The notes below the pieces were generated by a model. That model made no database searches, was not told where the DNA came from, and was given only the letters and a program-made list of their open reading frames with translations. Shown here piece after piece: positions 27,701-60,142 of a DNA stretch of 64,000 nucleotides (the first letter of the stretch is position 1; every line of letters begins with the position of its first letter). The stretch covers positions 62,994,001-63,058,000 of the forward strand of contig OZ076409.1 in assembly GCA_964187785.1 (NCBI GenBank), given 5' to 3'. The translations under genes and the position numbers were made by a program. This stretch comes from Amphiscolops sp. MND2022. Lineage: Eukaryota.

Positions 27701-29078
27701 ATTTTTCTGAAAATAATCAATGAGGAAACGTAGAAGCTTGCAATAACAAGCCTTCATTGTCGATATGGAAAAAATTTGAATAAAAATCGGTTTCTATACA
27801 CTTTGAGTTGCGGGCTTGAAATGAACCTTCGACTTGGAATCAATCAGATAATTCCTCTGATCGTTTTTTGAAAAGTAATTCCAAATTTATTCAGCATGTA
27901 AGATTTTGAGTTATACTATTCCGATGACTCCGAATGAACAAACTGCTGCACAAAACCAGAAAACTTTGTTTGAGTTTTTTCTCCCGATTGTCATGAAAGC
28001 TGGAAAGCGTTTTACTACAGAGGAGACGGAGGTTCGAATCTTATCTGTTTCGATGTTTCATTTATTTCCAAAGTCCGAAAACAGCACGCTATATCCGAGT
28101 TTTTGACGTTATACCCGAAGTAAATCGCGTTTTACTAAGGAGGATGTAGCTTCGGATATTATCAGTTTTGATGCTTCGTTTCCTTCCAAAATCGAAAGAA
28201 AAGCACACTATATCTGATTTTATTTGATCTTGAATCCGAAGTAGTTGAGGTTTCTGGTGCGAATGAAAGCAAAAAGTCTCTTAGGCCCAGAAATCCAAAA
28301 TTGCGAGTTTTCCGGAAGGGCCCTCCCTCCCTTTTAAATTTTAACAGTATTTGCTTTCTTCTGTTTTCTTTCTTCTGACAAGTAGTTTTCGAGACGATTT
28401 TGATAAACTTCAAAAACTTCCAACATTGCCCAAAAATACGAAATGATGAAATTGTTGATAATTCGATTCATTTCCAAAGCAAAAACTACAGTTGTAAGTC
28501 ATCAGAACACGATAACATTTTCCTTTGGAGATTTTTTCCACAATTGTCGATTTGAAGTTTTCAATGTTTTGGCCAACAATAATGTCTGTCCTTCACGTGC
28601 TCGCACTCCGCCGCAAGACACCAGTGACCACCAGGTGCAGGAATTTTGGTAGTTTAATCTCATTTCCACCGGTTACCACTGGTGGCCGACTGGAGACGAC
28701 AGGTGAAATGGTTTCAAAAAATTTCAAAACTGGCTTTGCTGATATGCTTGGCTTTTTGAACTTTACTTGTCGACGTTTCTTAGTTTTCATGGTATAGAAA
28801 CATTTAATCATTGGTTTCTAAAGATTTATTGTTCGTTTTTGAGAATTACTATAAAGACCCCGCTTGCATTAAATTCGCTTTTCAGCACCACTTGAAAGGT
28901 TGACTTTTGAGAAAAAAGGATTAGAGAGGTATTTGATGCAACAGTGAAACTTTTACCCAAAAACTTTCAAAAGAATCCCCCTTTGGTTTTTTGGTACTTT
29001 CAGTTTTAAAAAATGTTTTTAAGCCCAATTGGCTCCCTATAAATTTTGGAGTACTGTCGCACGCATGGGTGAAATTAG

Positions 29079-29084
29079 TTTATT
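29079..29084 (-). terminator. Predicted polyadenylation signal AATAAA in the 3' LTR
   Basis: The only minus-strand AATAAA I found in the LTR, about 25 nt from the LTR end. Confidence 0.5.
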
Positions 29085-29694
29085 AGTTTTAATCTGTCAA
29101 GTCCTTGTTTGCATTTTACAAGGTACTATCTCGCGACGGTTCTGTTATTGATTTATCAAGTATAAGTCCCAACAAATAAATTAGCAACTTACTGATAAAG
29201 GGGTGCCTTGCGTGTACGTGCGAACAAAAGAAATTGCGTGAGTCGCGCAAGGCGGTGTTTGTAAATGAGCTTCCCGTTTACTGAAAATGTATGGTGAATA
29301 AATATGTTTAATTACGAATGAGTTGAGAATATTGAAAGTGAACAATTTCTGGACATAGCAATATTTCCTTCAATTGTTACAAATCTCAGATTAATAAAGA
29401 TTACAACTTCACTTTACAAGAAGTAATATAACTTTTACAATTTATCATTTAAGAAAATGAAACTATTTACAAATAATAAGAATTTCCCTTTTTCTTCGGA
29501 AATCTTTTTCTCAAACAAAGATTACAAATCCGTACTATTTTAAACGGAAGAGTTTTGATTTAGATGTCTCTATTCAGTAGAAAGTTGAATAGCATTAAGA
29601 CTTTTTCATAATATGACACTTTAAAACTTCAATCATCCCTTTTCTTATGTGAGTTTATGTAATTTCAACCTCATAGAAATTTAGTTCTAATAAG

Positions 29695-29907
29695 AATAGT
29701 CTAAGCTAAAGTTTGGTCAACCGCAGAATTGAAATCAGCGGAAAATAATCTAAGGTAAGATTTTGTCAACCGCAGAATTGAAATCAGCGGAAAATAGTCT
29801 AAATTAAGATTTTGTCAACCGCAGAATTGAAATCAGCGGAAAATAGTCTAAGTTAAGGTTTTGGAAACCGCCGAGTTTAAATCAGCGGAAAATAGTCTAA
29901 GTTAAAG
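29695..29907. repeat. 49-bp tandem repeat (about 4.3 copies) inside the 3' LTR
   Basis: ccgc cores at 29721, 29770, 29819 and 29868 (period 49). Confidence 0.9.
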
Positions 29908-30684
29908 TCTCAGAGAGAATGAAATCTCTACTGAAAGGTCTAAATAGTCAGACTCACCAAACCGGAGACGAAATTGAAGAGAAATTTCTAAGTTAGAAAT
30001 TTCTTGTAAGGGAAGATTGGTTCTGGAAGTTGAAGTTAAATCAAGGATGAGTGGAGAAATATTCTAAGATGCAAGGGTATGATTAAAAGAGAATTATTGG
30101 ATCTGAGTTATTAAGCAAGAAGTTTTGTTGAGTTAAATAGCAATCGGAATTGAAAGTGAAGGCGAGAAATAGACTTTCTAAGTCTGAAGGGGAAGATAAT
30201 AGTAAAGGGAGAGGAAAGGGGGTAAAGTAAGAAAGAAGAGCAGGGGTGAGGGGAGAGAAGTGGAAGAGAAGTGAAGAGAAACGAGAGCTATTAAGTTTAA
30301 GCTCTGTCCGTTTCGATAAGTGTATGTGTGAATGAATCTCCTCGCCTGCGTTGGCCGTATATATACAGCCAAGCATTTCTTATCGTGCGCTGCGTAGCAG
30401 GCATGGCTTATCTTTCACCAATCATAGTTGGTTTCATATTTCAAATATACGCGGTATAATATAGAATTCTTCACTTGTGCAATTCCTTTCTCGTCACAGT
30501 ACTTCGTCATCATTATTACCATCGTTATGGCCGCCGCCTTATGACCGCCATCTTTATCTACAACTCTCTCTCCCATAAACAAACGTTAGTTCTAGTTCAT
30601 GTTTGTTTCTGTATTTGTTAGTTAAATATAGACTGCACTTTAGCACCTAATTATGTTTGTTAAAGCGTTAGTCATAACGCGACA

Positions 30685-30721: not shown

Positions 30722-31660
30722 TTATGGGTCAGACTGAAAGAAGGGGGAGTTATGTAGCGCGAGTGACTGAGGGGAAGGTTCCTTAAATTTGATTCTAAAT
30801 ATTATAGAGTCATTGTTTAGGAATGCTTCTCTGAAGTTGACAAGTAACTTCGTATGAGGGATGAAGTCTTCTTTGAGGAGGTTCGGGTGCGTGTAGAGAT
30901 TGTGAAGGGTATCTTCGTGGTTGTGGGGGTTGATTGGGAAAAGTGCGGACCACTTGTTGCCTTCGTCCTTCTGATCAAGGAATTCGACTTCTACTGTTTT
31001 ATCAAAGGGCCATGTTTGTGGGTGAGTGAAGTCGCTATAATGAAGTTCACAGCTAATAGAAGAGTGGGTCCCACGGAAGATGTTTATCCCGTAAGGGAAT
31101 ATTCTGAAGGAAATTTTGCAGCCTGATAGGTATGTTGGGTAAATAGGGCTCGCGAAGCTGTTTTTGATGTTGTGAAAGGGATCGTCTGGAGAGGTCCTTG
31201 CTTTTCGGTAAAGTGTGGAGAAGGCGGAAACTTGCCAAGTGATAAAATCTTTACCGTTCGCTTCAATCTGGCTCGCTCGGTTGAGGAGGGAGCTTTGGTG
31301 TTTGATTGTCGCTCGCAAATCGAAGATAGTGACTTCCAATTGTTGACGTTTATCTCGTGCCTCTTCGATTGAGGTACATAGCAGTTTGATTCGGTTTTCT
31401 AACTTCTTTTGGGGTTGATTAATGTCCGTTAAAGGGAAGGACTTTCGGAGCGGTGTGCTTTTTGTTCCCTGGTTATAGGTACTAGTTGATTTCTCCCATT
31501 CACTAATCCACATATTTAGTCTTTCCACTCCTTCGAGGTTTGCATGTTCTTCTTGATCGTTTTCTTCAGGCATAGGTGGCCAGTCGGGGTTAGGGATCGG
31601 TAGGTAGGGTTTGTGTTTTGGGATGAAGGGGGTGGCATTTGGGTTTAATTTTTGGCTCAT
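30722..31660 (-). CDS. PAM2 motif + coiled coil + TRAF-type MATH domain protein (312 aa), RING-less TRAF-like
   Basis: N-terminal KLNPNATPFIP matches PAM2; heptad region; ITWQV..F, SPIY..GCKISFRIFPYG..RGTHSSI, WPFDKTV..LDQ, FIPH..L and FLNNDSIIFR match TRAF-C motifs. Confidence 0.88.
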   Translation of the reverse strand: MSQKLNPNATPFIPKHKPYLPIPNPDWPPMPEENDQEEHANLEGVERLNMWISEWEKSTSTYNQGTKSTPLRKSFPLTDINQPQKKLENRIKLLCTSIEEARDKRQQLEVTIFDLRATIKHQSSLLNRASQIEANGKDFITWQVSAFSTLYRKARTSPDDPFHNIKNSFASPIYPTYLSGCKISFRIFPYGINIFRGTHSSISCELHYSDFTHPQTWPFDKTVEVEFLDQKDEGNKWSALFPINPHNHEDTLHNLYTHPNLLKEDFIPHTKLLVNFREAFLNNDSIIFRIKFKEPSPQSLALHNSPFFQSDP

Positions 31661-32238
31661 TGTGCAGATATGGATCTTAAGGGAACTGTCAGCCGCTGTC
31701 CCTTCAGTGCAGGGTTCTCAATAGTGTATTCTTGTCTTTTGTTGTCCCAAAAGACGATTTTCCAGGTTGAAAACTGTGGGAGTAGAGAATACTTTAGGTT
31801 TGCGTTAAACCTAGGTTTTTTAACGTATCTGGCTTTTCTAGTGAAGTATTCCCTTTTATGTTGCTTATGTAAGGGTGCTTCATCGGCTATCTCGTTGTTC
31901 CATTCATGATAGTGTTTTTGTGGTGTGTTTCTTCTGATGTCCTTTCCACCAAATCTAGGAGGATGTTGTGTTGACGGGATTGGTGGTATGTCTCCTGTGA
32001 ATGACAAAGGAAAGGGGAGTTGGTCGGATGGCGTTGGTGTGAAGGTTGGAGTTGGAGATTTTGAGGGTGATGATGGGACCGTTGAGTCAGGGGGGTCGGG
32101 AAGGAAGGTAATTGTTGTAGACGAGTCTGGTGTCAAAAAGTCTGAAGGAGATAGGGGTTCGATTTCTAGGTCACTTTCTGGGATAGGATCCAGGGTATCG
32201 TCGTCCAGGCTTGGTAGGTCGAATAGTGGTTCTAGATT
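31657..32238 (-). CDS. ATG-less ORF/exon (193 codons; acidic Pro/Ser/Thr-rich, then basic region), probably spliced to the env N-terminus
   Basis: The frame opens immediately after tttacttttAG (32239); it contains no ATG; its stop overlaps the next ATG (ATGA). Confidence 0.65.
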   Translation of the reverse strand, partial: NLEPLFDLPSLDDDTLDPIPESDLEIEPLSPSDFLTPDSSTTITFLPDPPDSTVPSSPSKSPTPTFTPTPSDQLPFPLSFTGDIPPIPSTQHPPRFGGKDIRRNTPQKHYHEWNNEIADEAPLHKQHKREYFTRKARYVKKPRFNANLKYSLLPQFSTWKIVFWDNKRQEYTIENPALKGQRLTVPLRSISAQ

Positions 32239-32284
32239 CTAAAAGTAAACTAATGAATGAATGAACTTGAAAATGTTTTTGGCT

Positions 32285-34432
32285 TTATATTGGAGCTACG
32301 AAGCTCTGTACTGAGGGATAAAGTGATTCTTCCTTATTCTTCAGTGCTTGGAGTTCTACTTCTTTTCCATTATCTTCAGTTTTCGCGTTTTTATCTTCAA
32401 CGCTATCCTCGTAAGGGGCCCGCGGGGTGAATACAGAAGTTAAAACTGAAGTAAAGAAAAGATTGTACGAAGCACTGAGCAATGTTTTAGTGAAGCTCAG
32501 TGTATTACCTGTGAGGTGACGAAGTTCAAAGTATCGGAAGACGAGTACCGTGATATCTATTACGAACTTAATGAAAAGAAAGGCGCCAAAATACGCGCCG
32601 CAGAGTTCTAGTACGTAAGATATACTTCCAAATGTTTCAAGGAACTGATTTTTGAAGTAATCGGGTGAGATCATGCCGTCAACATAAAAATCTGTACGGG
32701 GTGCATAATACGCGAAAGATTCAGGTCCACTATGGGCCATTGAGGGTGTGATGAGCTCACGTGAGAACTTCTGGAGGGCGTTGCGAGACGCTGCGCTGAT
32801 GAGGATGTTGTCCCAAAATTCTGAGAGTTGTTTAGGCGTATACATTCCCGCGTCTTGTGAACCAGGGAAGGATCTAGTAATCATTGGTTGTATGTCTTTG
32901 GGTCCGAAGATAGCAGGTCGGTCGCGATGTTCGGGTGAAGGAGTGAGGGTAAACCAGGAGTCTTTGTCTTCCATATCCAATTGAAAGAGGTTCTTAATGC
33001 GATCGCTGCAATTTTGGGCGTTCGCGTTAGGATAGGTCTGTCGGGTGATTGGGTCCACGAAGGCAACCACTCCTTTGTAGAAGATGGGTATGCGGTCGTA
33101 GCATCGGTTCATCGTGTGAAGAGGTGAGTGGGATTCCGGGCAGTGGTAGAGCCAAGCGAGGCTGCCATCTGTGTTCAGGAACATTGAGCGATTTCCCGTG
33201 AGCATGTATCCGGCGAGGCGAGGATTTTCCACTGATAGCATCAAAATAGTAAGGATTTGAGTTCTTTCTTGTTCGCATTGTGCTTTGAGGAGCTGGATTT
33301 CTGAAGCTTCGAGGAGACGAGTGCTCTCAAAGAAGAGATAATCAAGCTTTGTCCCTTGGTGTAACTCGTAATCCATGTTGAGGTAATGAGGTGTATTAGG
33401 GTTGGGGTCGCTCGGGCCTCGAAAGAGGTGGAGTCGGCCATTACCAGAACCATCTTCGGGTGAATAATATTGTAGTTTAGATGTCTCTCCCATGGAGATG
33501 CCGAGTCGTCTGCCGGACGTCATGTCGAAGCCACCAAGTTGGATTGAAACGTACAGGGATTCGTAGTTGGTCGGGTATACATCGTCTGGTTTGTTGCAAT
33601 ACTTTTGTGGTCTGTTGTAGACTTCGAATAAAAATTTGGTAGTGGAGTCGTTGCCGCTTACGATATAGTAGTTAGATCCGTGTTTGATCATGTTCACGAT
33701 TTCTTTCCTATGTACTGCAAGCACGCAATTATCGGGTTCCGCCCATGTGTAGGCGTATGGGTCCAGTGACGTCGTTTCGCAACCTAGTTGTTCTAAGGGG
33801 CAGGGAAGGACCATCTGAAACGGAGTCAGGACTTTTCCATCTCGAGTTTTTACTGATAATTCAGCATCTTGGATGTGAGATTCGAATGTTTCTCTTTTGA
33901 TCCAGCCACCTGTCTTGCATTCATTTCGGGTATCTGGGTCGCGTACACCGTCCCAACCCTTTCCGTATTTGGCGTTTCTCGTCTGTACTTGTTTCACTCC
34001 TTTCTTAAATTTGAGGGGTTGTCCATGGATTATGACTTCTTTGCCTTCACCCATTGCCTTGCAGGTTTCGGGTGACAGGGAAAGATCGCTGGTGATTCCG
34101 TCGTGTAGGATTGACATACTGGAGTGGTCGTGATAACCACAATGCCATTCTTCACTCTGATGTTTCACACGGCACATAGTGGCGTTGATAGTGCGGCGGA
34201 AATGTTTAGTGTATAACGTTACGCTCGCACGACTTACCTCTAAGTTTTCAGGTGCCACATTGCATTGTTCAACTTGATTCAATGCGTAGAGTTTATTTTG
34301 GGTCATTTCGCCGCAGTCGAAATGAGTTACTCGCAGTTTTTTAGCAACGCTAGCGAGGTTTGGCGTTGGACGTTGTAATATCACAACGGGCGCGTAATGG
34401 GCGCATAAAAAGAGTAAGTAAAATAATTTCAT
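32285..34432 (-). CDS. env: Env-like fusion glycoprotein (715 aa), chuvirus/Jingchuvirales glycoprotein-like
   Basis: N-terminal signal peptide; Cys pattern HFDC..ALNQVEQC..CRVK..WHCGYHDH..PETC; C-terminal transmembrane segment (CGAYFGAFLFIKFVIDITVLVF); splice acceptor TTTCAG 2 nt before the ATG. Confidence 0.85.
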   Translation of the reverse strand: MKLFYLLFLCAHYAPVVILQRPTPNLASVAKKLRVTHFDCGEMTQNKLYALNQVEQCNVAPENLEVSRASVTLYTKHFRRTINATMCRVKHQSEEWHCGYHDHSSMSILHDGITSDLSLSPETCKAMGEGKEVIIHGQPLKFKKGVKQVQTRNAKYGKGWDGVRDPDTRNECKTGGWIKRETFESHIQDAELSVKTRDGKVLTPFQMVLPCPLEQLGCETTSLDPYAYTWAEPDNCVLAVHRKEIVNMIKHGSNYYIVSGNDSTTKFLFEVYNRPQKYCNKPDDVYPTNYESLYVSIQLGGFDMTSGRRLGISMGETSKLQYYSPEDGSGNGRLHLFRGPSDPNPNTPHYLNMDYELHQGTKLDYLFFESTRLLEASEIQLLKAQCEQERTQILTILMLSVENPRLAGYMLTGNRSMFLNTDGSLAWLYHCPESHSPLHTMNRCYDRIPIFYKGVVAFVDPITRQTYPNANAQNCSDRIKNLFQLDMEDKDSWFTLTPSPEHRDRPAIFGPKDIQPMITRSFPGSQDAGMYTPKQLSEFWDNILISAASRNALQKFSRELITPSMAHSGPESFAYYAPRTDFYVDGMISPDYFKNQFLETFGSISYVLELCGAYFGAFLFIKFVIDITVLVFRYFELRHLTGNTLSFTKTLLSASYNLFFTSVLTSVFTPRAPYEDSVEDKNAKTEDNGKEVELQALKNKEESLYPSVQSFVAPI

Positions 34433-34500
34433 TTCTGAAATTCTTCAGTCTTTGACAATCAATCAGGAAAAATGTTTTTTATAGATATGTGGATCCACGG

Positions 34501-34934
34501 TAAGGCCGTAAAAAGGCAAGCCGTAATATCAAACCGGCAGCTTAGCTGGCACGACACTAAGCGGAGGTTAAAATTTTATAGTAGTAACCTCACTACTATT
34601 GGAAAGTGCCTTATGGAAAGATTGTTGTTTTTTGTTTAAAGTATAGGTTTCGGAGTAAGGCCGTAAAAAGGCAAGCCGTAATATCAAACCGGCAGCTTAG
34701 CTGGTACAACACTAAGCGGAGGTTAAAATTTTATAGTAGTAACCTCACTACTGTTCACACGTACCTAAGAGAAGGAGAAGTTTATTTGTCTTTTAGTTTA
34801 GTTTAATGTTATGGATCCTGAAATAAGGCCGTAAAAAGGCAAGCCGTAATATCAAACCGGCAGCTTAGCTGGCACGACACTAAGCGGAGGTTAAAATTTT
34901 ATAGTAGTAACCTCACTACTATTCAAAGAGTGCC
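34501..34934. ncRNA. Three tandem copies of a 97-nt structured RNA motif (cores 34501-34597, 34656-34752, 34824-34920)
   Basis: Near-identical cores separated by divergent linkers; three hairpins, an H-type pseudoknot and a covarying loop-to-flank pairing. Confidence 0.7.
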
Positions 34935-34980: not shown

Positions 34981-35325
34981 TCAGCTGTAGTTATCACTGA
35001 TTGATTTTAGACTGGGAGAGTGTTTGTTACGTCTCTGGGCGTCGAGGAAATCGATTAACTTGCTGAGGAGATGAAGGGTCAGAGGGTGAACGTGATCTAA
35101 GTAAGCGATCTCCCTGTAGTCGGTTAGCGCCTTCGCAAGATCTGCTGCTTCTGTCGAGTCTGTGGCGACAGGGATGAGCCAATGTCCCGTTTGATGTGGT
35201 CGGAGGCTGTGGAGTTCAATCTGAAGTGCGGGGGCGCTCTCTTTCCAGGCTATAGAGAGGATCTCAAGAAGTGTGTTTGTTTCCGGGTGACGCCAGAGAA
35301 ATTTGAGTTGTATTTTAAACATCAT
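34981..35325 (-). CDS. Accessory ORF D (114 aa), small-protein family
   Basis: ATGATG start overlaps the last codons of ORF C; motif pattern shared with A and C. Confidence 0.7.
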   Translation of the reverse strand: MMFKIQLKFLWRHPETNTLLEILSIAWKESAPALQIELHSLRPHQTGHWLIPVATDSTEAADLAKALTDYREIAYLDHVHPLTLHLLSKLIDFLDAQRRNKHSPSLKSISDNYS

Positions 35326-35931: not shown

Positions 35932-36172
35932 CGGTGAGCTGTTATGCCTTGTGGCGTGTGTGCATCAAACATAGCAAATCTGAGAATGGAATCATCAGTT
36001 ATTTCATTGCGTTTTTGGGGGTATTTGTAGAGGAGAGAGGATTACGACTTCATGAGTCGTCGTAGTAAACTAGACAAATGTCCGGGTAGGATATTATATT
36101 TTATATCTGATGACTAAGTTGAATAGTGATACATATATGGTTGACTTTAATCAATAATTATAAACATTTTGC

Positions 36173-37427: not shown

Positions 37428-38246
37428 TTATTCTTTGTAACCAATTCTAGTCCTTTCACGAAGTATGGACTGTCGTGCTGGTTGATTGGGTTGTGCTCGC
37501 TGATAACGTGGATTTCTCTCTATTTGGCGGGCAACAGCCTTTCGTAACTCTTGCAAGGGAGTCGTTGACTTGGTAGACGATGCCGGGGTGTTAGTTGGGG
37601 GTGCTGGAGTTGGTTGACGTTGAGTTAACGTCAGGATAGGGGTTGCTGCGTTTTGAAGAGGTGATGTCGAAGGCTGATCGGGAGTCTTGGGAGTTGACAA
37701 CAACTGATTTTCTGGAGAGATGATACCAGAGTCTGTGCTCTGGGGGGTTTGCGTTCTTTTGCGGGCAAGTATTTGGTTTTGTTGATTCCGTACTGGCAAT
37801 ATGCAGAGGTCTCCGAGTTTTTGTGGTTCTGAAACATTAAGTTGTTCAATTCTTCCTTTGACAAGATTGTTATAAAAATCCGTGTCTCCACGGTGGGGAG
37901 TAGTGTATTCTTCGATAAGAGGGGGGAGTGTTTCTTCTTTAGGAAAGTATTCTATTAGATGGTTCCTATGTACAGTTCGGAGATTCTCGGGGTTTTGATC
38001 TTCCATTATTTGGTAAGTTGTATTTGTAATTCGTTTGGTAACCGTAAAGGGTCCTAGTCGCAGTTGTTGGAGTTTTTGGCTTTTGGAGAGGTCTTTTCGA
38101 TGGTTCTCTAGCAGAACCTTTTGTCCAATGTTGAGGTGGTTCCCAAGTTTAAATCTGTTCCTGTAGGCGTGTGATTGAGCTGTTTGTTTTCTGCACTTTT
38201 CATATGTGGATGAGTAGACCTTTTTGAAGGCTGTTTCTCGTTCCAA
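37428..38246 (-). CDS. Integrase C-terminal region (GPY/F motif) plus Pro/Thr-rich tail, split from pol by a 1-nt frameshift near 38250
   Basis: IGQKVLL...LGPFTVTKRITNTTYQI...TVHRNHL is the typical gypsy integrase C-terminus; it overlaps the end of the pol ORF in the -1 frame. Confidence 0.88.
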   Translation of the reverse strand: MERETAFKKVYSSTYEKCRKQTAQSHAYRNRFKLGNHLNIGQKVLLENHRKDLSKSQKLQQLRLGPFTVTKRITNTTYQIMEDQNPENLRTVHRNHLIEYFPKEETLPPLIEEYTTPHRGDTDFYNNLVKGRIEQLNVSEPQKLGDLCILPVRNQQNQILARKRTQTPQSTDSGIISPENQLLSTPKTPDQPSTSPLQNAATPILTLTQRQPTPAPPTNTPASSTKSTTPLQELRKAVARQIERNPRYQRAQPNQPARQSILRERTRIGYKE

Positions 38247-41200
38247 TAAGTTTGTGATAGTTGTGGTCGTAATAGTCCATTTAGTAGTTCGTTTTTGACT
38301 TGGTTTTCGCTATGGCAATGAGGAGGTAATCCTTGACAGAATTGTGATTTGCAGTTCTTGTTTTTGTTCCTGTAGAGTCCCAGCTTCAGACTCATAGGTA
38401 TCTGTGGTTTATTGCAAAACACTATCTCGTAGGGGGTCTTTCCAGTCGTGTAGTTGACGCTTGTGTTGTGGGCGAATGCAAATTTGGCAGCTAGTTGGGC
38501 CCAGTTGTTTCCTGATTCGTTTAGGAAGTTTCTCCAGTATCTTGCAATGTGTTGATTTTGAGTTTCTACTTTGCCATTTGTCCAGGGTGAGTGTGCGGTT
38601 CTTGGTCGAAGTGTAATGCCAAACTCTTTAGTCCAATTGACGAATTCAGTGTTCACGAAAGCTGTTCCTCTATCATGTACGATAGATTGAGGGATGCCAT
38701 AGTGCATAATCCATTTTTCCATCGCATTGATTGTAGATTGTGCTCCTGTGTCTCTGACTGGGTATGCCATCAGGTAACGTGAGAAGGCGTCGATGATCAG
38801 AAGGCAATGTGAATTTCCACGACTGGGAGGATTGAGTGGTCCTTTGTGATCAATGTGGATGGTTCTGAATACTTGAGTTTCGGTTTCGCAGTCTTCCAGT
38901 GGGACTTCGTTGTTTCTCCGTTGTTTGGATTTGTTAGATTGGCAGCTAACACAATCTTGTGTGAGGGCACAGATCCAGTTGTGCATCCCTGGCCAGTAGT
39001 AAAATCTCTTAGCATTGAGGAAGGTCTTTTCTGCTCCCATGTGGCCGCCGAGGTCGTTGTAATGTCCCATACGAAAGCAAGCTAAAAATAGAGAGAGAGG
39101 TAGACAGATTCTCAGATTCTCGTCTGTTGGGTCATCAGTTGGCTCGTTATAACAAAGGAGGTTTCCTTGGCCTTCTATAGATAATCTGTCGAATTCCTGA
39201 AAGTAACGCATGAGGCCTTTTGAGTGTTGTAACTCTGGTGATTTTGGTTCGGGTTTGTTTCCTGTTCTTACCCATTGTCGGACCACGCTGAGTACCGGGT
39301 CATTTATTTGTTCTTGTAAGATCGTTGTAACGTTTAGTTCTACTTCTTTGGATAGTTTATCAAGTTGTCTGACAAGTTCCTGTGTTGGTGTCTTTTGTTT
39401 TTCAGTTGAATTTGTAGGTAGATCGAGGTGTTCTATTGCCTTCGCGTTTTTGGGAAGACTTGGGTTACGTGCGATGGGATCTTCTGTGTTGAGCTCGTAG
39501 TTGGTCTCGTTTATTTCTTGACTCTGATTGTCTGTGAGGGCTTCGTCATCCGTATCACTGTTGATGGAGCTGTAAGTGTTTTGTGATAAATCCGAAGTGC
39601 TATCCCGTGTTCCTGACCTGATTCTTAGTTCTTCGAATTTTCCAAGTTCTCTTCCAGCGTCGAGGCAACTCTGTGCTGACTCTACTTTCGGCAGGTTAGG
39701 TTCCTCGTAGATAGAGTTAACTGTGAAGTTATTCCCATCATTTTGGAGATGAAGTACTTTCCGTTTTTTTCCCTTCTCGTACAAGATGGGGTAAAAGTCG
39801 TTCTTGGATGTCTCTTCATTTTCTTCGTGTTTGATTTTGTAGTGTACTTGGGTTCCATGTTCGTCGAAAAAGTGTATGTCAGTTGGGATGACTTTGTGAC
39901 TGAGTTGATGTTTCTTGTGTTCCTCGATGGAGACGTTTCGACTGAGTATATCAGGGAAGGCTAGGTTGCTTCCTGGAGTCCAAATTATCTTGAGATTCGG
40001 GAATTTAGATATAATTACTTGGTACCTGAAAAAACGGGGTGAAATTTGTCCCTTTCTTCCCCAGAGATAAAGAATCGGCTTGTGATCGCAGTATAGGTAG
40101 ATGGGGAAGGGAGATCCGATGATGTAGTGTTCATACGTCTGAAGAGCTGAGACTATGCCACATAATTCTCTGTGTAGTGTGGACATCTTTTGTTCTTCCT
40201 TTGCGAAAACTCTTGAGTTGAAGGAAATGATCCGTTTCCCTTCTGGGAATTGTTGGATGAGGATACATCCTGTCCCAACGTTTGACGAGTCGACGTGTAT
40301 GTGAAAGGGGTATTTTGTCGAGGGTATTGCGAGCACTGTGTCTTCGGTAATTTTTTTCTTTATTTCCTGGAAAAGGTCTTCGTGTTCTTGGTTCCAGCAA
40401 AAATTTGTATCTTTCTTGGTGAGTTCGTAAAAAGGTCGACTATCGACATGAAGATTCTTGATGTAGCAGCTATAGAAGCCCAAAGCTCCTAAGAAGCTTT
40501 TCACTTCGGTTTTGGTCTTTGGTGATTTGAGATTGTGTAGGTCTTTTACTCGTTTTGCGACGGGTTGTATTCCTTCGGCTGCTATCACGTGTCCCAAAAA
40601 CTTGACTTTCCTTAAGAAGAAGAGTGTCTTATCTGGTGCTGCCTTGAGTCCGGCTTTCCGCAGTAAGTTATGGTATTCTTGAATTACCGTGAACATTTCT
40701 TGTTTGTTTTTGGCTTGCATCAACGTGTCGTCGATGTATGTAATTGCCTGTTTCCTTTTGATGAGGGGTTCGAAGTGGATAGTCATCATTCTGCTAAAGA
40801 AGCTTGGTAATCCCTTGAGTCCATAGAATCCCCTGGTGAAGGTGTATTGTTTTCCGCCAATGATGAAGCTGGTGAGTTTTTGCGTGGGCTCGTCTAATGG
40901 GACTTGGTGAAATGCACAGGAGAGATCACTTACTGAGAAGATGTTTCCATTTATTAGTGTCATTATGGTTTGGATCGGTTCTAAGGGCCAGGAATAATTT
41001 GTTAGATCTGTCACCGAGTTTAGATATCTCGCATCTATGATCAGCTTGACATAGTCATGTTTTGGTTGTAGTATAATAGGATTCACAAATAAGGATCCCA
41101 TTTCTTCATCGTCGCCCATTTCTCTGATGATATCAGCGTCTTTGAGTTGTGTGAGTAGCTTCTCTAGCTTTTCTCGTAGGTGAAGTGGTACTTTGCTGGG

Positions 41201-42937
41201 TCTCTGTCTCTTTAGAATTGCTCCAGGTTCTAGTTTAATGTTAAATTTTTGTCTGGTTTTCCCTACGTCAAATTTGTGTTGGGAGTATACATCTCTTGCG
41301 TCCATTAGTAAGTCTATTAGGAGAACCAGTTCTTCGTCTGTGAGGTCTGAGTAGCGAAAGTCGAATTCTTTAATGTATCGCACTGCTTCTTTATTTTGAT
41401 ACTGAAGGTAGTACTCGATCAGTCGTTCGTTGTCTTCTTTTGGCCTGAAGATTTTAAATTGCTCATCGCAGGGTGGTTGACAGGACTTTGCGTCGCTTGT
41501 GAAGTCTGTCTCCAGCTCTCTATGTTTGAGATGAAATTGCTCGGAAAATTGTTGTATCTCATCTTCTAGTACGTATTCGGGGTCTCCTCTTGTAGTCATG
41601 GCATAGACATCTAGTTCGTTTCTTGTATAAATTCGGAGTTGTATTTCTGAGTATGCAAATACGTCTTGAATGAGTTGAGTGACGTCTTGCCATTGGAAGT
41701 CTTCTAGCTCTGAGGCTTCCCGTAGCATGGATATAGTTTTGATGCCGCTCATTTTGGCGTGTGCTTTTAGAGTTTCGAGAGATTGAACTAGTAATTGTGG
41801 GTCAATCTTGTCTTTTGATTTTGCTTTCGTAATCAGAACATATATAAATCGTTTCAGAGTTTCGTCCCAGTAGGGTATGGTTTCTCCTTTCTGTGGTTTC
41901 TGTTTTGCGCATGTATCCTTAAGTGAAGGTATTTTCGTTAGGATTTCTTTTGAGAAGCCTTTGGCTGGCTTTAGGTCGGCCGGGACGAAGATGATGATAG
42001 GGTCTGGTCTGCTGAGTATTGTTTTCGAGTTTCCTCCTTCTATTCTGAGGCAATCGTTCATATCTTGTGAAGGAATGGTAGAGTGTAATAGGAAACAGTC
42101 GTTGTATTCTTCGTTTTCGTTTAGGATAGCATATGCGAGTTCTGTCGGGTTTCTAATTTGGTATTTCGGAATTTCTTGGTCTAATACGTCAAGCATTGAG
42201 TATCCGATAGTTCCTTTTACTAAGGTGATTGTATGGTTTTTGTTGTTTTCCATGACGATTGGTAAAGTCTTCTCAAATCGTGTACAGAGGACATTTATGA
42301 AGTTAAGTCCAGTAGAAACTGCCTTCCTGTTCGGTAGGAACGTAGATCCAGGAGGAAATGAGTTATTAGTGTTTTCCGGTGCGAATTTGTAACATCTTGT
42401 CGTCTTTGGTTCGATATACATTGAGTGAGGAATTCGGACTGAGAGAATTTGTGATAGATAGGGGTAACATTTGTTGAGTTGTAGGCTACCATAGCAAAAA
42501 GTATTTATAGGTCTTTTGAGTTCTATGCCAGGAAGATCAAAGTGTATTTTGTTAACTTGTTCTTGGCAGAAATTCATTCCAAGGAGGTTTTGGGTTTTCA
42601 TCTCTGTTATCCAGACTGTTAATGGGAAGTTATGTTGTCCATCGGAATCGTAGTAGAGTTTGAGGGTGATGTATCCCATCATAGGGATGATCTGCCCAGA
42701 GTAATTCCGTGTTGTGTTATTGCTTCTACTAAGTTCTAGGTCTTGTTGAAACTGGCAAAGTTCTCTAAAGGTCCTGTAGTTGATGATTGAAGATGTTGCC
42801 CCAGTGTCTAGTAGAAATTCGATTTCTAAGCCACTATCTTTTTGTGAGTCTCCGGCAGCAAAATAATAAAGATTAAGACTAAATTTTAGAGGGGCACTGC
42901 TGCTATTTCTATTTTTCGGAGACCTTAGTAGTTTAAA
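38108..42937 (-). CDS. pol: Pol polyprotein: aspartic protease, macrodomain, RT, RNase H, integrase (entered by frameshift)
   Basis: FLLDTGA (upstream of the listed ATG) and LLGMNF protease; DLSCAFHQV, FYGLKG and YIDD RT; IHVDSS, HRELCGI and YCDHKPI RNase H; H-H-C-C (GHY..GGH..CVSC) and IHIDH / IVHDRG / NGKVE integrase. Confidence 0.96.
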   Translation of the reverse strand, partial: FKLLRSPKNRNSSSAPLKFSLNLYYFAAGDSQKDSGLEIEFLLDTGATSSIINYRTFRELCQFQQDLELSRSNNTTRNYSGQIIPMMGYITLKLYYDSDGQHNFPLTVWITEMKTQNLLGMNFCQEQVNKIHFDLPGIELKRPINTFCYGSLQLNKCYPYLSQILSVRIPHSMYIEPKTTRCYKFAPENTNNSFPPGSTFLPNRKAVSTGLNFINVLCTRFEKTLPIVMENNKNHTITLVKGTIGYSMLDVLDQEIPKYQIRNPTELAYAILNENEEYNDCFLLHSTIPSQDMNDCLRIEGGNSKTILSRPDPIIIFVPADLKPAKGFSKEILTKIPSLKDTCAKQKPQKGETIPYWDETLKRFIYVLITKAKSKDKIDPQLLVQSLETLKAHAKMSGIKTISMLREASELEDFQWQDVTQLIQDVFAYSEIQLRIYTRNELDVYAMTTRGDPEYVLEDEIQQFSEQFHLKHRELETDFTSDAKSCQPPCDEQFKIFRPKEDNERLIEYYLQYQNKEAVRYIKEFDFRYSDLTDEELVLLIDLLMDARDVYSQHKFDVGKTRQKFNIKLEPGAILKRQRPSKVPLHLREKLEKLLTQLKDADIIREMGDDEEMGSLFVNPIILQPKHDYVKLIIDARYLNSVTDLTNYSWPLEPIQTIMTLINGNIFSVSDLSCAFHQVPLDEPTQKLTSFIIGGKQYTFTRGFYGLKGLPSFFSRMMTIHFEPLIKRKQAITYIDDTLMQAKNKQEMFTVIQEYHNLLRKAGLKAAPDKTLFFLRKVKFLGHVIAAEGIQPVAKRVKDLHNLKSPKTKTEVKSFLGALGFYSCYIKNLHVDSRPFYELTKKDTNFCWNQEHEDLFQEIKKKITEDTVLAIPSTKYPFHIHVDSSNVGTGCILIQQFPEGKRIISFNSRVFAKEEQKMSTLHRELCGIVSALQTYEHYIIGSPFPIYLYCDHKPILYLWGRKGQISPRFFRYQVIISKFPNLKIIWTPGSNLAFPDILSRNVSIEEHKKHQLSHKVIPTDIHFFDEHGTQVHYKIKHEENEETSKNDFYPILYEKGKKRKVLHLQNDGNNFTVNSIYEEPNLPKVESAQSCLDAGRELGKFEELRIRSGTRDSTSDLSQNTYSSINSDTDDEALTDNQSQEINETNYELNTEDPIARNPSLPKNAKAIEHLDLPTNSTEKQKTPTQELVRQLDKLSKEVELNVTTILQEQINDPVLSVVRQWVRTGNKPEPKSPELQHSKGLMRYFQEFDRLSIEGQGNLLCYNEPTDDPTDENLRICLPLSLFLACFRMGHYNDLGGHMGAEKTFLNAKRFYYWPGMHNWICALTQDCVSCQSNKSKQRRNNEVPLEDCETETQVFRTIHIDHKGPLNPPSRGNSHCLLIIDAFSRYLMAYPVRDTGAQSTINAMEKWIMHYGIPQSIVHDRGTAFVNTEFVNWTKEFGITLRPRTAHSPWTNGKVETQNQHIARYWRNFLNESGNNWAQLAAKFAFAHNTSVNYTTGKTPYEIVFCNKPQIPMSLKLGLYRNKNKNCKSQFCQGLPPHCHSENQVKNELLNGLLRPQLSQTYWNEKQPSKRSTHPHMKSAENKQLNHTPTGTDLNLGTTSTLDKRFC
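42847..42937 (-). promoter_or_regulatory. Programmed -1 ribosomal frameshift signal (U UUA AAC + downstream stem)
   Basis: TTTAAAC at 42937-42931 is in the gag frame, one codon before the gag stop. The -1 frame is open through FLLDTGA into pol. Stems GGTCTCCG/CGGAGACT and GCAGCA/TGCTGC begin 6 nt downstream. Confidence 0.88.
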
Positions 42938-44379
42938 GGGCGGAAATCGGCAATAGAGTTCACCGAGTAGTCGGTTTCTAAGAACTGTACTGTGTTGGAT
43001 CTTCCTATGTCATTAGTTTTTGGGAATCTTTGCTCGTAAGATTGAGTTGGAGTGTTGGGTCTTTCGTTTCTGTCTAGTGGTCTTTGAAAAACTGAGTTAT
43101 TTCTTGGTGGAAGAGGTTGTATGTTGCGATTAAAGGAGCTAGACTGGTCTCTGTTGAAGTTGAACGGAGATCTTGCTCTTTGGGGTCCAGGGGAAACACT
43201 TCTGGAGTTGTTAGAATTGTTTAGGAAGGGTCTTCTCCCTTCTTGTGAAAATCTTTGGTTACCAGGATTGACTCTTGTATTCGTAGGTCGGCGTTCTGGG
43301 TTGAAATTTTTTCTTTGTGGTCTATCGTATTGATTCCAGGCAGGGTTTGACTGCATAGCTCCAGCCAGTGCTAGTTGATGTGCCACAGCCATATGTTTTC
43401 TGATTTCTGAATCTGGTAATCTTGGTTGAAATCTAGAGCCATGTTCAGGTCCAGTTCTCTTGTTGTAGTCGTTGGTGAATGTTATTCTTCTTTCTGGGTT
43501 AGCTTCGTTTTGAACCTTCTTCACTTCTTCATCTCTCATCTTCTTTCTGCACCAGTTAGGTGTGTGTCCATTTGTTCGGCAGTAGCCACAGAATCGTGTG
43601 GCCATTCTTCGACCTGTAGCATTAGGGTCTACAGTTTTCTCTACTGCGTTGATTGTGTTATTCATCTGTTCTTTGATTTGTAGTTTGATTCCCTTCAGGT
43701 CGTCTCGCATTTCTTGTATGAGTGGGTCTGAATGTGATTCTCCGCCAGTTAGGGCGGTAGTTACCGTGTAGGAGAGATCTTTGTTTATTATAGCTTGGGA
43801 GAATTGTTCCCAGGTTGCATTCGGGTGATCCATTAAATATTCGTGTGCCTTTTCTCTCAGTTTTGGAGGTCTTAGGCCTCTCAGTGAGTAGTCGATGCAC
43901 CTTTGTCTTCTTTGTCGGTCTTGTGCTGCTCTTTCTGCGTTTCTGTCGTTTTGTGCGACGCCGGCAAGATCATCTGGCCAGCCTTTCCCCACAACAATTT
44001 TGATTCTGTGTAGAAAATTCTTTATCTCTTCTCCATCTCTTCTGGTGACATGTTCTGCTTCCATTCTGTGTCTGAATTTATTTCGGCCATCTGCGAATCT
44101 TGTGATGAACCTTTCTCTGATTTCTTGCCAGGTGTTAGCGTCTGTGATACTTGTCTCGAACCACTCCGCTGCTGGTCCTCTTAGTAGTGTAGCAAAGTAG
44201 GATTTTCTCCTGAAGTTGTAGTCGTCAAGTGCTGCTCCGTTTGCTGGGGTATCACCATGAGAGAAACGGAACTTCTTTTCAATTAGCTGTATAAATTGTT
44301 CAGGATCTTGATCTGGGTCTGTTCCCGTGAATTGGTCTCTGCCGAGGTCTGGATAAGCCAAGTAATTTTGCGCAGCCAT
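42925..44379 (-). CDS. gag: Gag (484 aa) with capsid-like region and CCHC zinc knuckle
   Basis: LLRGPAAEWF...TWQEIRERFITRF capsid-like motif; CGYCRTNGHTPNWC = C-X2-C-X4-H-X4-C; first long ORF after the PBS. Confidence 0.93.
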   Translation of the reverse strand: MAAQNYLAYPDLGRDQFTGTDPDQDPEQFIQLIEKKFRFSHGDTPANGAALDDYNFRRKSYFATLLRGPAAEWFETSITDANTWQEIRERFITRFADGRNKFRHRMEAEHVTRRDGEEIKNFLHRIKIVVGKGWPDDLAGVAQNDRNAERAAQDRQRRQRCIDYSLRGLRPPKLREKAHEYLMDHPNATWEQFSQAIINKDLSYTVTTALTGGESHSDPLIQEMRDDLKGIKLQIKEQMNNTINAVEKTVDPNATGRRMATRFCGYCRTNGHTPNWCRKKMRDEEVKKVQNEANPERRITFTNDYNKRTGPEHGSRFQPRLPDSEIRKHMAVAHQLALAGAMQSNPAWNQYDRPQRKNFNPERRPTNTRVNPGNQRFSQEGRRPFLNNSNNSRSVSPGPQRARSPFNFNRDQSSSFNRNIQPLPPRNNSVFQRPLDRNERPNTPTQSYEQRFPKTNDIGRSNTVQFLETDYSVNSIADFRPLNY

Positions 44380-45395
44380 TGCGAGCTATTGAGATTATAA
44401 AGGATAGAAGATGAAGCAAAGAACAATAAGCCAAAGACTCTATGAGGTATGATACTCTTGGCTTTTGAGAATAACAGCAAAGAGTTAAAGTAAAAATTGT
44501 TTGTACTATGATTCTAATAGTGATAATTATTAGACAGGTCTGACAAATCATAAAATCCTTAATACGCTGCTAGCAAAAATGAAAATAGCACTTCTCGGTC
44601 GAAGTTAGGTTCATTTCCTATATTTCGTACTCTGATTCCACAGTTTAGGGGATACTTACAAATCCCAGTAGTGTTGAGATTATCGTAAAAAGGGTAGTTC
44701 GGGGTATACCAATCCTCCGAGTTAACCCAAAGAAAACCTATGAAGAGTACAGTCAGTCCACTAGGTCTTTCATCCGCTCGTTGAGCCTTTCTTTAACTTT
44801 AGGAAAATAACTACGGCTAGTTCACAGAGGGAGTTACTCTCGTCTTTAGGATTAAGTGCGTGGGGCCCAGATCACTATCATGCAATCACTTGGGTACTAT
44901 CACTAGAATACTAGGTTTCCCACTCGGAATGCTACATAGGTTCCAAGATACCCACTGGGCTCACGGCCTTCAAACAGCCTCCGAGGAGACCTAGGCGGGC
45001 TTTTACTTAATTTGTGTCCGTCCGGACTAGAGTGAATTTCCCAACTGTGCCTTTAAATAAAGCGTATAGAGTCAGTTTCATTCTTGTTTAGGACTGATGG
45101 TAATCTCATAGTATTTTCGTAAAGGTAAATCATTTCTAACAAATGGTTTTGGGGATTGAAAGAAAGAGAGTGGTGCATAAACTCTTCCCAAAGCTGTTAG
45201 GCTGGAGAGATTCTGTTAGAGTATTTACTAGCAGTTTTACGATTTATATAGATTAGAGAAGCCACATATTGAGGCAGTAGGAGAAAGAAGAAAATTAGAA
45301 GTAATGTTAAGAGAAATAAGTAAGTAACCCTTACTTCTGAGAGTAGGGATTCTAACAGATAGCTCATTTACTTCTCTATTACAAGAGAAAAAGTT

Positions 45396-45413
45396 GCCTC
45401 ACTGGTCGCACCA
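45396..45413 (-). promoter_or_regulatory. Primer-binding site of element 1 (TGGTGCGACCAGTGAGGC)
   Basis: Starts with TGG 3 nt after the 5' LTR. Its complement GCCTCAC-TGGTCGC-A-CCA has tRNA 3'-end architecture (T-stem CTCAC as in tRNA-Met(e) or Ile-UAU). The tRNA identity is unresolved. Confidence 0.85.
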
Positions 45414-46055
45414 GTTTGTCGCACGCATGGGTGAAATTAGTTTATTAGTTTTAATCTGTCAAGTCCTTGTTTGCATTTTACAAGGTACTATCTCGCGACG
45501 GTTCTGTTATTGATTTATCAAGTATAAGTCCCAACAAATAAATTAGCAACTTACTGATAAAGGGGTGCCTTGCGTGTACGTGCGAACAAAAGAAATTGCG
45601 TGAGTCGCGCAAGGCGGTGTTTGTAAATGAGCTTCCCGTTTACTGAAAATGTATGGTGAATAAATATGTTTAATTACGAATGAGTTGAGAATATTGAAAG
45701 TGAACAATTTCTGGACATAGCAATATTTCCTTCAATTGTTACAAATCTCAGATTAATAAAGATTACAACTTCACTTTACAAGAAGTAATATAACTTTTAC
45801 AATTTATCATTTAAGAAAATGAAACTATTTACAAATAATAAGAATTTCCCTTTTTCTTCGGAAATCTTTTTCTCAAACAAAGATTACAAATCCGTACTAT
45901 TTTAAACGGAAGAGTTTTGATTTAGATGTCTCTATTCAGTAGAAAGTTGAATAGCATTAAGACTTTTCATAATATGACACTTTAAAACTTCAATCATCCC
46001 TTTTCTTATGTGAGTTTATGTAATTTCAACCTCATAGAAATTTAGTTCTAATAAG

Positions 46056-46268
46056 AATAGTCTAAGCTAAAGTTTGGTCAACCGCAGAATTGAAATCAGC
46101 GGAAAATAATCTAAGGTAAGATTTTGTCAACCGCAGAATTGAAATCAGCGGAAAATAGTCTAAATTAAGATTTTGTCAACCGCAGAATTGAAATCAGCGG
46201 AAAATAGTCTAAGTTAAGGTTTTGGAAACCGCCGAGTTTAAATCAGCGGAAAATAGTCTAAGTTAAAG
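46056..46268. repeat. 49-bp tandem repeat (about 4.3 copies) inside the 5' LTR
   Basis: Unit ...aaccgcagaattgaaatcagcggaaaatagtctaa... with period 49. Confidence 0.9.
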
Positions 46269-46690
46269 TCTCAGAGAGAATGAAATCTCTACTGAAAGGT
46301 CTAAATAGTCAGACTCACCAAACCGGAGACGAAATTGAAGAGAAATTTCTAAGTTAGAAATTTCTTGTAAGGGAAGATTGGTTCTGGAAGTTGAAGTTAA
46401 ATCAAGGATGAGTGGAGAAATATTCTAAGATGCAAGGGTATGATTAAAAGAGAATTATTGGATCTGAGTTATTAAGCAAGAAGTTTTGTTGAGTTAAATA
46501 GCAATCGGAATTGAAAGTGAAGGCGAGAAATAGACTTTCTAAGTCTGAAGGGGAAGATAATAGTAAAGGGAGAGGAAAGGGGGTAAAGTAAGAAAGAAGA
46601 GCAGGGGTGAGGGGAGAGAAGTGGAAGAGAAGTGAAGAGAAACGAGAGCTATTAAGTTTAAGCTCTGTCCGTTTCGATAAGTGTATGTGT

Positions 46691-46726
46691 GAATGAATCT
46701 CCTCGCCTGCGTTGGCCGTATATATA
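46691..46726 (-). promoter_or_regulatory. Predicted LTR core promoter: TATA box + initiator
   Basis: TATATATA (46726-46719) lies about 30 nt upstream of an Inr-consensus TCATTC (A at 46694) on the minus strand. Confidence 0.6.
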
Positions 46727-49700
46727 CAGCCAAGCATTTCTTATCGTGCGCTGCGTAGCAGGCATGGCTTATCTTTCACCAATCATAGTTGGTTTCATAT
46801 TTCAAATATACGCGGTATAATATAGAATTCTTCACTTGTGCAATTCCTTTCTCGTCACAGTACTTCGTCATCATTATTACCATCGTTATGGCCGCCGCCT
46901 TATGACCGCCATCTTTATCTACAACTCTCTCTCCCATAAACAAACGTTAGTTCTAGTTCATGTTTGTTTCTGTATTTGTTAGTTAAATATAGACTGCACT
47001 TTAGCACCTAATTATGTTTGTTAAAGCGTTAGTCATAACGCGACAGTACATTTGCTCTTTTTGAGCCTTAGGCAGGTCGCCGACTCATGCCGTTCCCGGC
47101 TTGTTTTGTAGTTTAAGATTCATAAAGACGCCGACTTATGCGGTTCTCGGCTTGTTTCATAATTTAAGGTTCCCAAAGACTAGAGACATTTTACTTCGCT
47201 GGCAGAAAATTTCAAAGTGCAAGATTTTTAATGTTCGTTTGACCGAAAAGTCTCAGAAGCCTAAATTTCTAAATATTCTATGTAAATTGAAATCTTATTT
47301 TCCGTTTCGCAATGAATCAAAAAACGCAAAAACTAATATATTTTGGATTTTCGGGAGATCTTTGTATAGTTACTCATGCACTATAGTTAACAAGGAAAAA
47401 TCTCATCTAATGCTTGCATATTGATGGTCTAAATTCCCTAATTCAGCACCTAATTCACCGAGTTATCTGACATATGGTTTAAGAAAACAGCATTTTGGGA
47501 CTACTTAAGTGAAGCTGGCTCAGTTCTTAATACAATCCCAGAGCAAAATGTCTTGAAACTCTTGTATAGATCTTACATATTCTCATATACTATTGAAAGC
47601 GTTGATAAGATCTTGCTTCACACAGATCTCTTGACTTTTATGAAATGAATTTTGGTAAGAGTTTCATCAAGAGTGGCAAGAAAATAAATAACTTACGGAA
47701 CAACCAATAGTTTTGTTTACAATTACACTGCTATTGCTCGAAGTACCATCTTCACTATCACAAGGTTTTGAAATTTAGGATCGATTTATTATTGAAATAA
47801 AGCTCGACTAACAGAGGGTTCGTGTGTCGTTTTGTACTTCATCAATTTTTTTGATTTTCTCAATCTGGTCGACGTGACCGTAAATTGTTTAAAATACGAC
47901 GAAAACGATTCAAAGGGTTCTCCTTCTTTCTTTTCATGCAATGTACAACATTTTCTGAATTTTTGATTTCTCCAAAAATGTTTTTTTACTTTTTGACAAC
48001 TTCAGCCCGAAAGTTGTTTTTCAAGACTGTGAGACTATTGTCATCAGCCTTCCAGCATATTTGAGGATAATATAGCCAAAAAAACTCTTCTAGTTTTTGT
48101 TCCTCAACGTAAGATTGTCTTTAACCGGGGCGTCGACAAACCAAAGTTGAGTTTGAAAAACAAGATAGGATCGCTTCATTCAGAATTTTCCAATGATGAG
48201 TGCAAACATAATCTTTGCCAGTCTAGAATATGATTTTCGTGTTTAAGAATTGGTTCCCATTTTACAATGACGTAGTTTAGGTTTATTAACGACTGAAAAT
48301 ACGACAGGATAAATTTGAAAATTCGGCAACGAATAATCCAGGAAACGTAGCTATTATATCGTTCATCTTCGAAGACGCCATCATTCATCTTCATCCTGAA
48401 AGTTTCATCGCCGTCATGAAATGAAAAACTGGCTGGTTATTTTTTTCTATTCTTAATCTTCTAATCTTTCTAAATCTTAATCTCTTTTCTCTTTTTGTCG
48501 AGGACTCTTTCCAGAAAGTTTTAGGAATCAGTCTGAAGATGAGAGTTTGAAGGCCCAGGAGACCAATTCCTTTGTTCCATCTGCTGCCTAGCAGTACAAA
48601 GTGGCTTCACATCTTGCAAAAGAGTAGTGATGAATCTGCACCTTTTTAGAACTAATGTAACCTAGAATGATTTGGATATATTGCAATTTCATTACCGAGT
48701 TTTTTGGCCTTGAAAACTATAAAAAACAATGTAGTGTAAAATTTTTTCGATAGATTGCCCACATATAACATTATCAGTTATAACTTGAGCTGGGTTAGCG
48801 TTTTCGAAAGTAAAAGTCAAAAAATGTTTGTATCAAAATTATATTTGCCGTCCTCCTCAACACTTTTCGTTAAATAAATAGAACCAGTGAAAGTAACAAT
48901 TGTCAGTCTATGAGCCTCAAAATCAAAAAGGCTGCACTAAAAATATTTTCGACACTTTGTGCGGAAATAATTTCGATAAAACTTCCCGCTGAGTTTTTGA
49001 AAATTTTTTGTTCCCGTTGGATTATTTTCTCACGTTCTCTGTGATACATTGTTGCTGATAGGAGGTGTCTTGTTTTGTTTCTTTCTACATACAGAATACA
49101 ACAAATATTGCAAAGACACCGCGCTTGTTTCAAGTTTTGTCGGAATGTAAGTGCTTGACGTCCTACTCTTGGCGTTGATTTTTTCGCGGGCGTAAATTTC
49201 AACTGGAGTGCAGGCTTATTTGATACACCCCACTGTTGGAAAACTTTGGAACAAATCATGCATATGGTTACTTGCCTGGGCAAACCTAACCCAAATTAAA
49301 ACAACAATCTTCTATTTCAGACAAAATATGAGGACCGCCTTTTTACATTGCAGGAAAACACTTGCTAAGACTTGATATCTTATGTTTGTCAAAAATGCTC
49401 GGTCAAGTTGTTTTGGAAAAAATCGACCCAATTTGTGAGTTTGCCAAGTTCGGTATATTTCATCCGTAACAAAAAACGTAATACCAATAGTTTCCAGTTC
49501 ATTCATGCATGAAAAAACCTTTTTTCCAGAAGTTTGTGCAAAAAGGTACGATTAGCAAGTGTCTTTGGCAAAATGCTTTGGTTTTTGGATAAGCGAGCGA
49601 ATTAATTGCAGTAGTGAGATTATTTATTCATACAAACGCACGTATCTTTGCGAAAATTGTCTCGCTAACTGTTCCTTATCGAATGCTTGCTCCGCTACCG

Positions 49701-60141: not shown

Positions 60142-60142
60142 C

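Follow-up and report, generated by a model that had tools for sequence, protein, structure and literature searches.

The 64,000-nucleotide stretch of Amphiscolops sp. MND2022 contig OZ076409.1 analyzed here (the window, with positions counted from its first letter) carries a long terminal repeat (LTR) element on its minus strand, and behind the env gene of this element lies an open reading frame (ORF) without an in-frame ATG. Judged by its sequence relatives, this post-env ORF is a real, conserved accessory gene of the Ty3/gypsy clade with gB-type env. It is presumably entered by splicing, through an acceptor shortly downstream of the env stop, and the likeliest lender of its start in the window would be env codons 1-65, joined through the donor at 34238. 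The explanation as a whole, a spliced accessory gene taking its start from these codons, was given a probability of about 0.55, and the 34238->32238 junction is probably in use.

Some related lineages have an ATG right after the acceptor, while ATG-less lineages would borrow their start from an upstream exon in phase 0. From a single pre-mRNA, retention of the 1999-nt intron would then yield Env, and its removal a 258-aa accessory protein with a signal peptide. The working part would be a C-terminal basic helix with an SH3/Tudor-like barrel, preceded by an acidic linker. The protein would act in the cell, speculatively as a regulator of element transcription or as an anti-silencing factor, and might reach the cytosol by failed import or retrotranslocation, which is equally speculative. 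Ribosomes ending the accessory ORF may reinitiate on an overlapping ORF for a PAM2-MATH protein.

The class of element and the logic of the splicing are known; what appears new is the accessory family, for which no Pfam model gave a match. No description of this gene, or of post-env splicing in gB-type errantiviruses, was found in the titles and abstract beginnings covered, a partial selection of the literature. Alternatively spliced accessory and regulatory genes are considered typical of complex vertebrate retroviruses, and a similar gene layout in an errantivirus clade, including the junction, is plausible. If this is true, Metaviridae would have reached complex-retrovirus organization separately, with a gene conserved across gB-type errantiviruses that are 40-74% identical in Env, and a new small domain would be available whose target can be sought.

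A conserved gene behind env

The coding character of the ORF, claimed in an earlier reading made from the sequence alone (the original prediction), was borne out by sister identity, profile matches and a confidently predicted fold. Six sister proteins were 68-74% identical to it, with conservation mainly in the C-terminal half, and the C-terminal domain reached 76-83% identity. A profile search recovered 82 representatives, 45 of them at E<=1e-10 and mostly aligned to positions ~120-192; two of the 82 were long and of low complexity and are probably spurious. No near-identical cluster occurred among the proteins of 106-338 aa, which fits the absence of a start codon throughout this subfamily.

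Residues 1-90 are acidic and rich in Pro, Ser and Thr (16 D/E, 1 K/R), and the N-terminal half is disordered, while residues 91-193 are basic (21 K/R) and residues 104-193 comprise a basic helix and a beta-barrel. The last 90 residues, predicted with 59 sequences, gave a long helix and a small beta-barrel at a pLDDT of 84, and the full-length prediction with seven sequences gave 43. Within the barrel domain W159, F163, W164 and Y/F171 are conserved, and these might contribute to an aromatic cage like that of Tudor/chromo methyl-readers. A bipartite nuclear localization signal (NLS) pattern at residues 128-144 was found in 31 of 84 family proteins compared with 9 of 133 env controls; it was not found in two of the homologues described below (L002 and L003 copy a).

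The domain had no Pfam family (59 members compared; best E 0.037), no PDB sequence match, no usable Atlas match and no Foldseek match at E<=0.001. In the predicted structure, residues 151-193 aligned to SMN Tudor, myosin SH3-like and chromo barrels over 41 residues (Z 4.4, rmsd 2.3), a weak likeness of common arrangement only, as none reached Z 5 and the top rows were tied across unrelated families. Unlike an integrase-fused chromodomain, the barrel is placed on a separate ORF. The acidic disordered arm, the NLS pattern and the small barrel together suggest a transcriptional or anti-silencing regulator.

Compared by BLASTP with the env or MATH protein of the window, 78 post-env homologues shorter than 450 aa (two longer ones were left out) gave no match at E<=0.1. 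These homologues look like unspliced ORF calls, and a spliced form would therefore not show in this comparison. Two proteins considered as true fusions of the post-env and MATH frames, P0001 and P0003, enter the MATH frame and stop early, and were read as frameshifted copies.

Candidate splice sites, related loci and possible start routes

The env ATG lies at 34432, and a candidate exon ending at 34238 spans 195 nt or 65 codons in phase 0, followed by GTAAGT on the minus strand. With a score of 11.9 this donor led the GT sites upstream of the acceptor, the runner-up scoring 8.5, and it is the best candidate partner of the acceptor. GAG accounts for 6 of the 44 Glu codons of env, and the exact donor codon triple had P=0.006 given the env protein and codon usage, or 0.019 if Ser is restricted to AGY; both values are post hoc. 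The acceptor AG ends at 32239, 47 nt beyond the env stop, and doubles as the in-frame TAG that closes the frame upstream. Taken alone it is of moderate strength (15 of 20 pyrimidines, a second AG 10 nt upstream, other YAG sites scoring equally), and it is supported by conservation in relatives and not by its own strength. The original prediction had placed a GAG|GTAAGT donor after Glu65 and an acceptor opening a 193-codon ATG-less frame in phase 0, and both sets of coordinates held. The joined product of 258 aa follows by arithmetic (65+193), and the basic stretch RKARYVKKPR is present in it.

An alignment-based scan identified ten related loci, seven of which include the env stop, while env scans of viral_contigs and a single-sequence scan of metagenome_contigs returned no relative. 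A homologue of the post-env gene was present in four of these seven (L001, L002, L004 and, twice, L003), and a T-rich tract with YAG preceded all five copies. In L002, with env 40% identical, a 50-nt T-rich spacer ending in TAG leads into a 199-codon homologue whose first Met is codon 142 (hhalign 89.9%). In L004 (env 62% identical) a T tract and TAG are followed by an ATG-less frame over 91 sequenced codons, 61% identical to family member P0202. The two homologues of L003 (env 41% identical) each stand behind a tract and CAG; copy a is in phase 0 with an ATG three codons on, and copy b is out of phase with its own ATG. In L001 a CAG and one base precede the ATG of a P0195-like peptide, of which nine codons were seen. 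No match to the domain was found in L006, L007 or L009.

All three ATG-less cases (window, L002 and L004) are thus in phase 0, a result expected by chance about once in 27, while of the three copies that have an ATG of their own, two (L001 and copy b of L003) are out of phase. At L003 8034-10478 a 102-codon ORF separates the tandem paralogues, each of which is extended by a coiled-coil-like tail, and an LTR and then a primer-binding site (PBS) follow directly.

In favor of a start borrowed from env, L003 reads V-S with GTAAGC at the codon of the window donor, and the env of L004 falls in cluster P0039, where E-V-S is retained at 65-67, that of L001 in P0046, with Q-M-N at this place. The two best env donors of L002 are both in phase 0 and 5', compared with 0.16 expected, while the best three of L003 are not. 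Several observations weigh against a start borrowed from env. L002, though ATG-less, has no GT at the homologous codon, so the position of the donor must turn over; L008 (I-S there) and L009 also lack GT at this codon, and L007 has a weak GT site only. E-V-S is conserved as protein (E in 47, V in 38 and S in 52 of 64 covering rows, 134 aligned), and in these A-rich elements Val-Ser pairs often read GTAAGY (2/3 in the window env, 2/4 in L002 and 2/4 in L003). The top donor of L009, where no homologue was found, is in phase 0 as well. In the P0038 lineage E-V-S is present as well, yet the post-env ORF (P0214) starts with Met near the tract, the two being linked by a frame run of 20 codons compared with at most 8 in shuffles. 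The donor matrix itself was generic and not trained on the host. Sister proteins with their own Met, which are three of six in the sister subfamily, and P0197 carry Glu at the position of the acceptor TAG. Finally, env Cys40 and Cys57 would stand in the fused form without the rest of the ectodomain, and an ER-targeted form is awkward because homologues without a signal peptide exist (L003 copy b and many Met-started proteins).

The frame can be entered only through splicing or a non-AUG start, which supports the splicing of the original prediction; a possible start exon in the leader and the own-ATG homologues free of a signal peptide were overlooked there. A start from the 41-nt leader exon at 45375-45335 would produce a 204-aa nuclear protein without signal peptide and leave the env donor incidental or minor. 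This route, considered rather unlikely, agrees with homologues that lack a signal peptide and with the bipartite NLS pattern, and has a phase-0 ATG with A at -3 between acceptor-like and donor-like sites; the second-best donor lies upstream of gag. ZAM and Beagle elements likewise start Env from short leader exons (PMC12992720). However, the leader donor is much weaker than that of env (7.6 vs 11.9), no similar exon is evident in 700 nt of the L003 leader, and the perfect env donor would remain unexplained. Among the top 30 donors, one of the eight non-gag-linked leader donors (besides the LTR site) has such an ATG, so chance could suffice. The two routes are compatible, as start routes are not exclusive; if the leader exon supplied the start, the gene family would still be new and the env-fusion aspect would be lost.

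A non-coding leader spliced to 32238, with initiation at CUG codon 11 or 16, is improbable. Both CTG codons stand in strong context (A at -3, G at +4), out-of-frame ATGs in the ORF number 3 vs 5.8 expected, and the first exon is free of ATG. Such a start would need no phase-0 acceptor, yet every ATG-less case has one, and the sister subfamily does not have Leu at codon 16. A decaying ORF whose start has been lost in this subfamily, with donor and acceptor arising by chance, is very improbable. The Glu at the TAG position in sister proteins, some with their own Met, would fit such decay, but P0197-type calls are biased to copies with a lost stop. The 193 open codons, the identity of the C-terminal domain to its sisters and the same TAG-acceptor layout in two distant lineages argue against it. 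The start borrowed from env codons 1-65 remains the preferred reading for the window element.

Comparison with Rem, Rec and other known systems

Rem and Rec are defined by a doubly spliced mRNA, binding to a response element and export through CRM1. The original prediction likened the spliced product to MMTV Rem and HERV-K Rec, and the predicted geometry would fit, as a donor within env would let a second, shorter protein share the env ATG and signal peptide. The putative signal peptide here is short, ~20 aa by hydropathy, hydrophobic from residue 1 and not arginine-rich (2 K/R among the first 30 residues). The proposed exon 2 belongs to a gene of its own behind env, with its acceptor past the env stop, and the carrier is a Ty3/gypsy element, not a vertebrate retrovirus. 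According to PMC13120120 and PMC12724133, the env signal peptides of Rem and Rec measure 95-98 aa and the second exon overlaps env. RNA-binding and NLS motifs are carried there by the 98-aa signal peptide of Rem and by the first 87 aa of Rec, and uncleaved Rem reaches the cytosol by retrotranslocation. The label fails because of the short signal peptide poor in arginine, the position of exon 2 outside env, and a basic domain that occurs also without a signal peptide. The claimed likeness in function was not supported either, and the basic stretch would be carried into the ER behind the signal peptide.

A product that works as Rem and Rec do, as an RNA-binding adaptor exporting intron-containing element RNA, is quite improbable. 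The element needs export of unspliced and singly spliced RNAs, the basic stretch has an NLS pattern, and both the rem/rec-like geometry and the retrotranslocation of uncleaved Rem are in keeping with such a role. Against it stand the features of signal peptide and exon 2 named above, the predicted position of the basic residues on a folded domain, the lack of the NLS pattern in L002 and in copy a of L003, and the fact that no response element was identified.

Since the env N-terminus is hydrophobic from its first residue, an env-fused form would be directed to the ER, and the basic domain would follow the signal peptide. The existence of homologues with their own ATG and an acidic start suggests that the domain is intracellular, and it probably works inside the cell. 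As uncleaved Rem reaches the cytosol, the env-fused form could act there. The probable signal-peptidase -1 residue (34373-34381, minus strand) is Leu here and Ser in the close copies P0012, P0014 and P0015, which may weaken cleavage.

The same mRNA had been expected to place a TRAF-like ORF for coupled translation. The ATG of this MATH ORF was found to overlap the stop of the post-env ORF, which suggests termination-reinitiation, and coupling itself is plausible. The motif UGGGA, which we take to resemble a reinitiation motif, occurs at 31745-31749 (minus strand), 89 nt upstream of the overlap, and is forced by conserved Trp-Asp codons. The PAM2-like N-terminus of the MATH ORF (E=0.0087) stayed below the cut-off; the middle part is coiled-coil-like, and the 12 clusters found apparently all belong to this and the sister subfamily. 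The MATH ORF is described as captured. LNPxxPxF-type (PAM2-like) motifs also occur 3' of the post-env domain in four more distant read-through relatives.

In foamy viruses the regulatory genes tas and bet sit downstream of env and before the 3' LTR and are expressed through splicing, possibly from an internal promoter. The window element resembles them in having a probably spliced, possibly regulatory gene in this place, while no sequence or fold match was found, and an internal promoter is a guess from TATA-bearing repeats.

The 'ancient' HSV/gB-type errantiviruses of Chary and Hayashi (PMC13524379) agree with the present element in gag-pol-env order, gB env with signal peptide, LTRs, PBS and many recent copies. 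They differ in that the window element has several extra ORFs and an acceptor-led post-env gene. The terms 'splic', 'TRAF' and 'accessory' have no occurrence in the main text, nor has 'TRAF' in seven supplementary files. No passage on splicing was found in PMC3383448. In Drosophila errantiviruses (PMC12992720), an ATG-less 3' exon of env gains its start from a short leader exon, from an AU dinucleotide or from gag, and the exon supplying the start varies among subclades. The need for a start from upstream is shared with the window element, but there the ATG-less exon is the F-type env, whereas here env starts on an ATG of its own and it is the accessory gene that lacks one.

A still broader scenario is unlikely. 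It holds that an invertebrate Ty3/gypsy clade independently evolved a complex-retrovirus program, in which the env signal peptide is spliced to a regulator that binds chromatin or RNA, escapes the ER and either controls the element or lifts its silencing. The same mRNA would make, by stop-start coupling, a PAM2-coiled-coil-MATH protein targeting poly(A)-binding protein or immune signaling, and the start exon would have been swapped repeatedly between lineages.

Layout of the element and neighboring features

The coordinates of all features are collected in Table 1. The LTRs are identical save one 1-nt gap and a 4-bp target duplication, GTAC, is present at both flanks, from which a very recent insertion follows. 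The order gag, then protease, reverse transcriptase, RNase H and integrase places the element in Ty3/gypsy, and LTRs, target duplication, PBS and a gB-like env 3' of pol were all found. By these features it is not a retrovirus but a young errantivirus of the Ty3/gypsy group, with an env of gB type. In clustering at 90%, its env groups with a set of 128 members, and the MATH ORF with one of 32.

Table 1. Positions of the element and its parts in the window.
Feature	Position	Strand	Remarks
Whole LTR element	47045-29055	minus	18 kb
5' LTR, 1629 nt	45417..47045	minus	near-identity to 3' LTR; target duplication
Putative non-coding first exon, 378 nt, ATG-free	46319..46696	minus	ends at second-best donor
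Primer-binding site	45396..45413	minus	TGG 3 nt past LTR
Leader mini-exon, 41 nt	45335..45375	minus	ATG 45367 in phase 0 (11 codons); acceptor-like tract 5', donor score 7.6 3'
gag	42925..44379	minus	PF03732; acceptor-like site 6 nt 5' of ATG
pol (protease, RT, RNase H, integrase)	37428..43009	minus	Pfam and ORFs
Tandem repeat, 168 bp x 2.6, upstream of env	34500..34927	minus	TATAAAA in each unit
env, 715 aa, gB-type class III fusogen, N-terminal hydrophobic segment	32285..34432	minus	PF24664 E=8e-33; hydropathy
env codons 1-65, candidate first coding exon	34238..34432	minus	
Consensus splice donor, phase 0	34232..34240	minus	rank 1/478
Pyrimidine tract and acceptor AG	32239..32275	minus	same layout in L002, L004
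Post-env accessory ORF, 193 codons and stop, no in-frame ATG	31657..32238	minus	
MATH/TRAF-domain ORF, 312 aa, PAM2-like N-terminus	30722..31660	minus	PF22486, PF21355 above cut-off
3' LTR, 1630 nt	29055..30684	minus	near-identity to 5' LTR

In the 5' LTR a TATA near 46726 and an Inr-like motif near 46696 were read from the sequence and would mark the promoter. The putative first exon has no ATG compared with 2.4 expected, a weak deviation (P ~0.09). An acceptor-like site at 44385, together with this ATG-free exon and its good donor, hints that the 2-kb leader of the gag mRNA is spliced out too. The first 13 nt of the PBS match the sequence after the LTR of L003. Despite the identical LTRs, pol consists of two frames overlapping at ~38110-38310, in the C-terminal part of integrase, and is unbroken in L003. 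No Rfam match was found within the element.

Three more sense ORFs of 117, 145 and 161 codons lie between pol and env (34981-35752 and 37034-37519, minus strand), as does an antisense ORF of 234 codons (36164-36868, plus strand), none with a Pfam match of note. A further TATAAAA occurs near 34485 (minus strand) beside the 168-bp repeats, which may form an internal promoter or a binding array. Elsewhere in the window, at 55039-61930 (minus strand), a second and unrelated LTR element lacks a long pol frame. Its LTRs are 95-99% alike, and inspection by eye showed gag, protease and a small, macro-like ORF.

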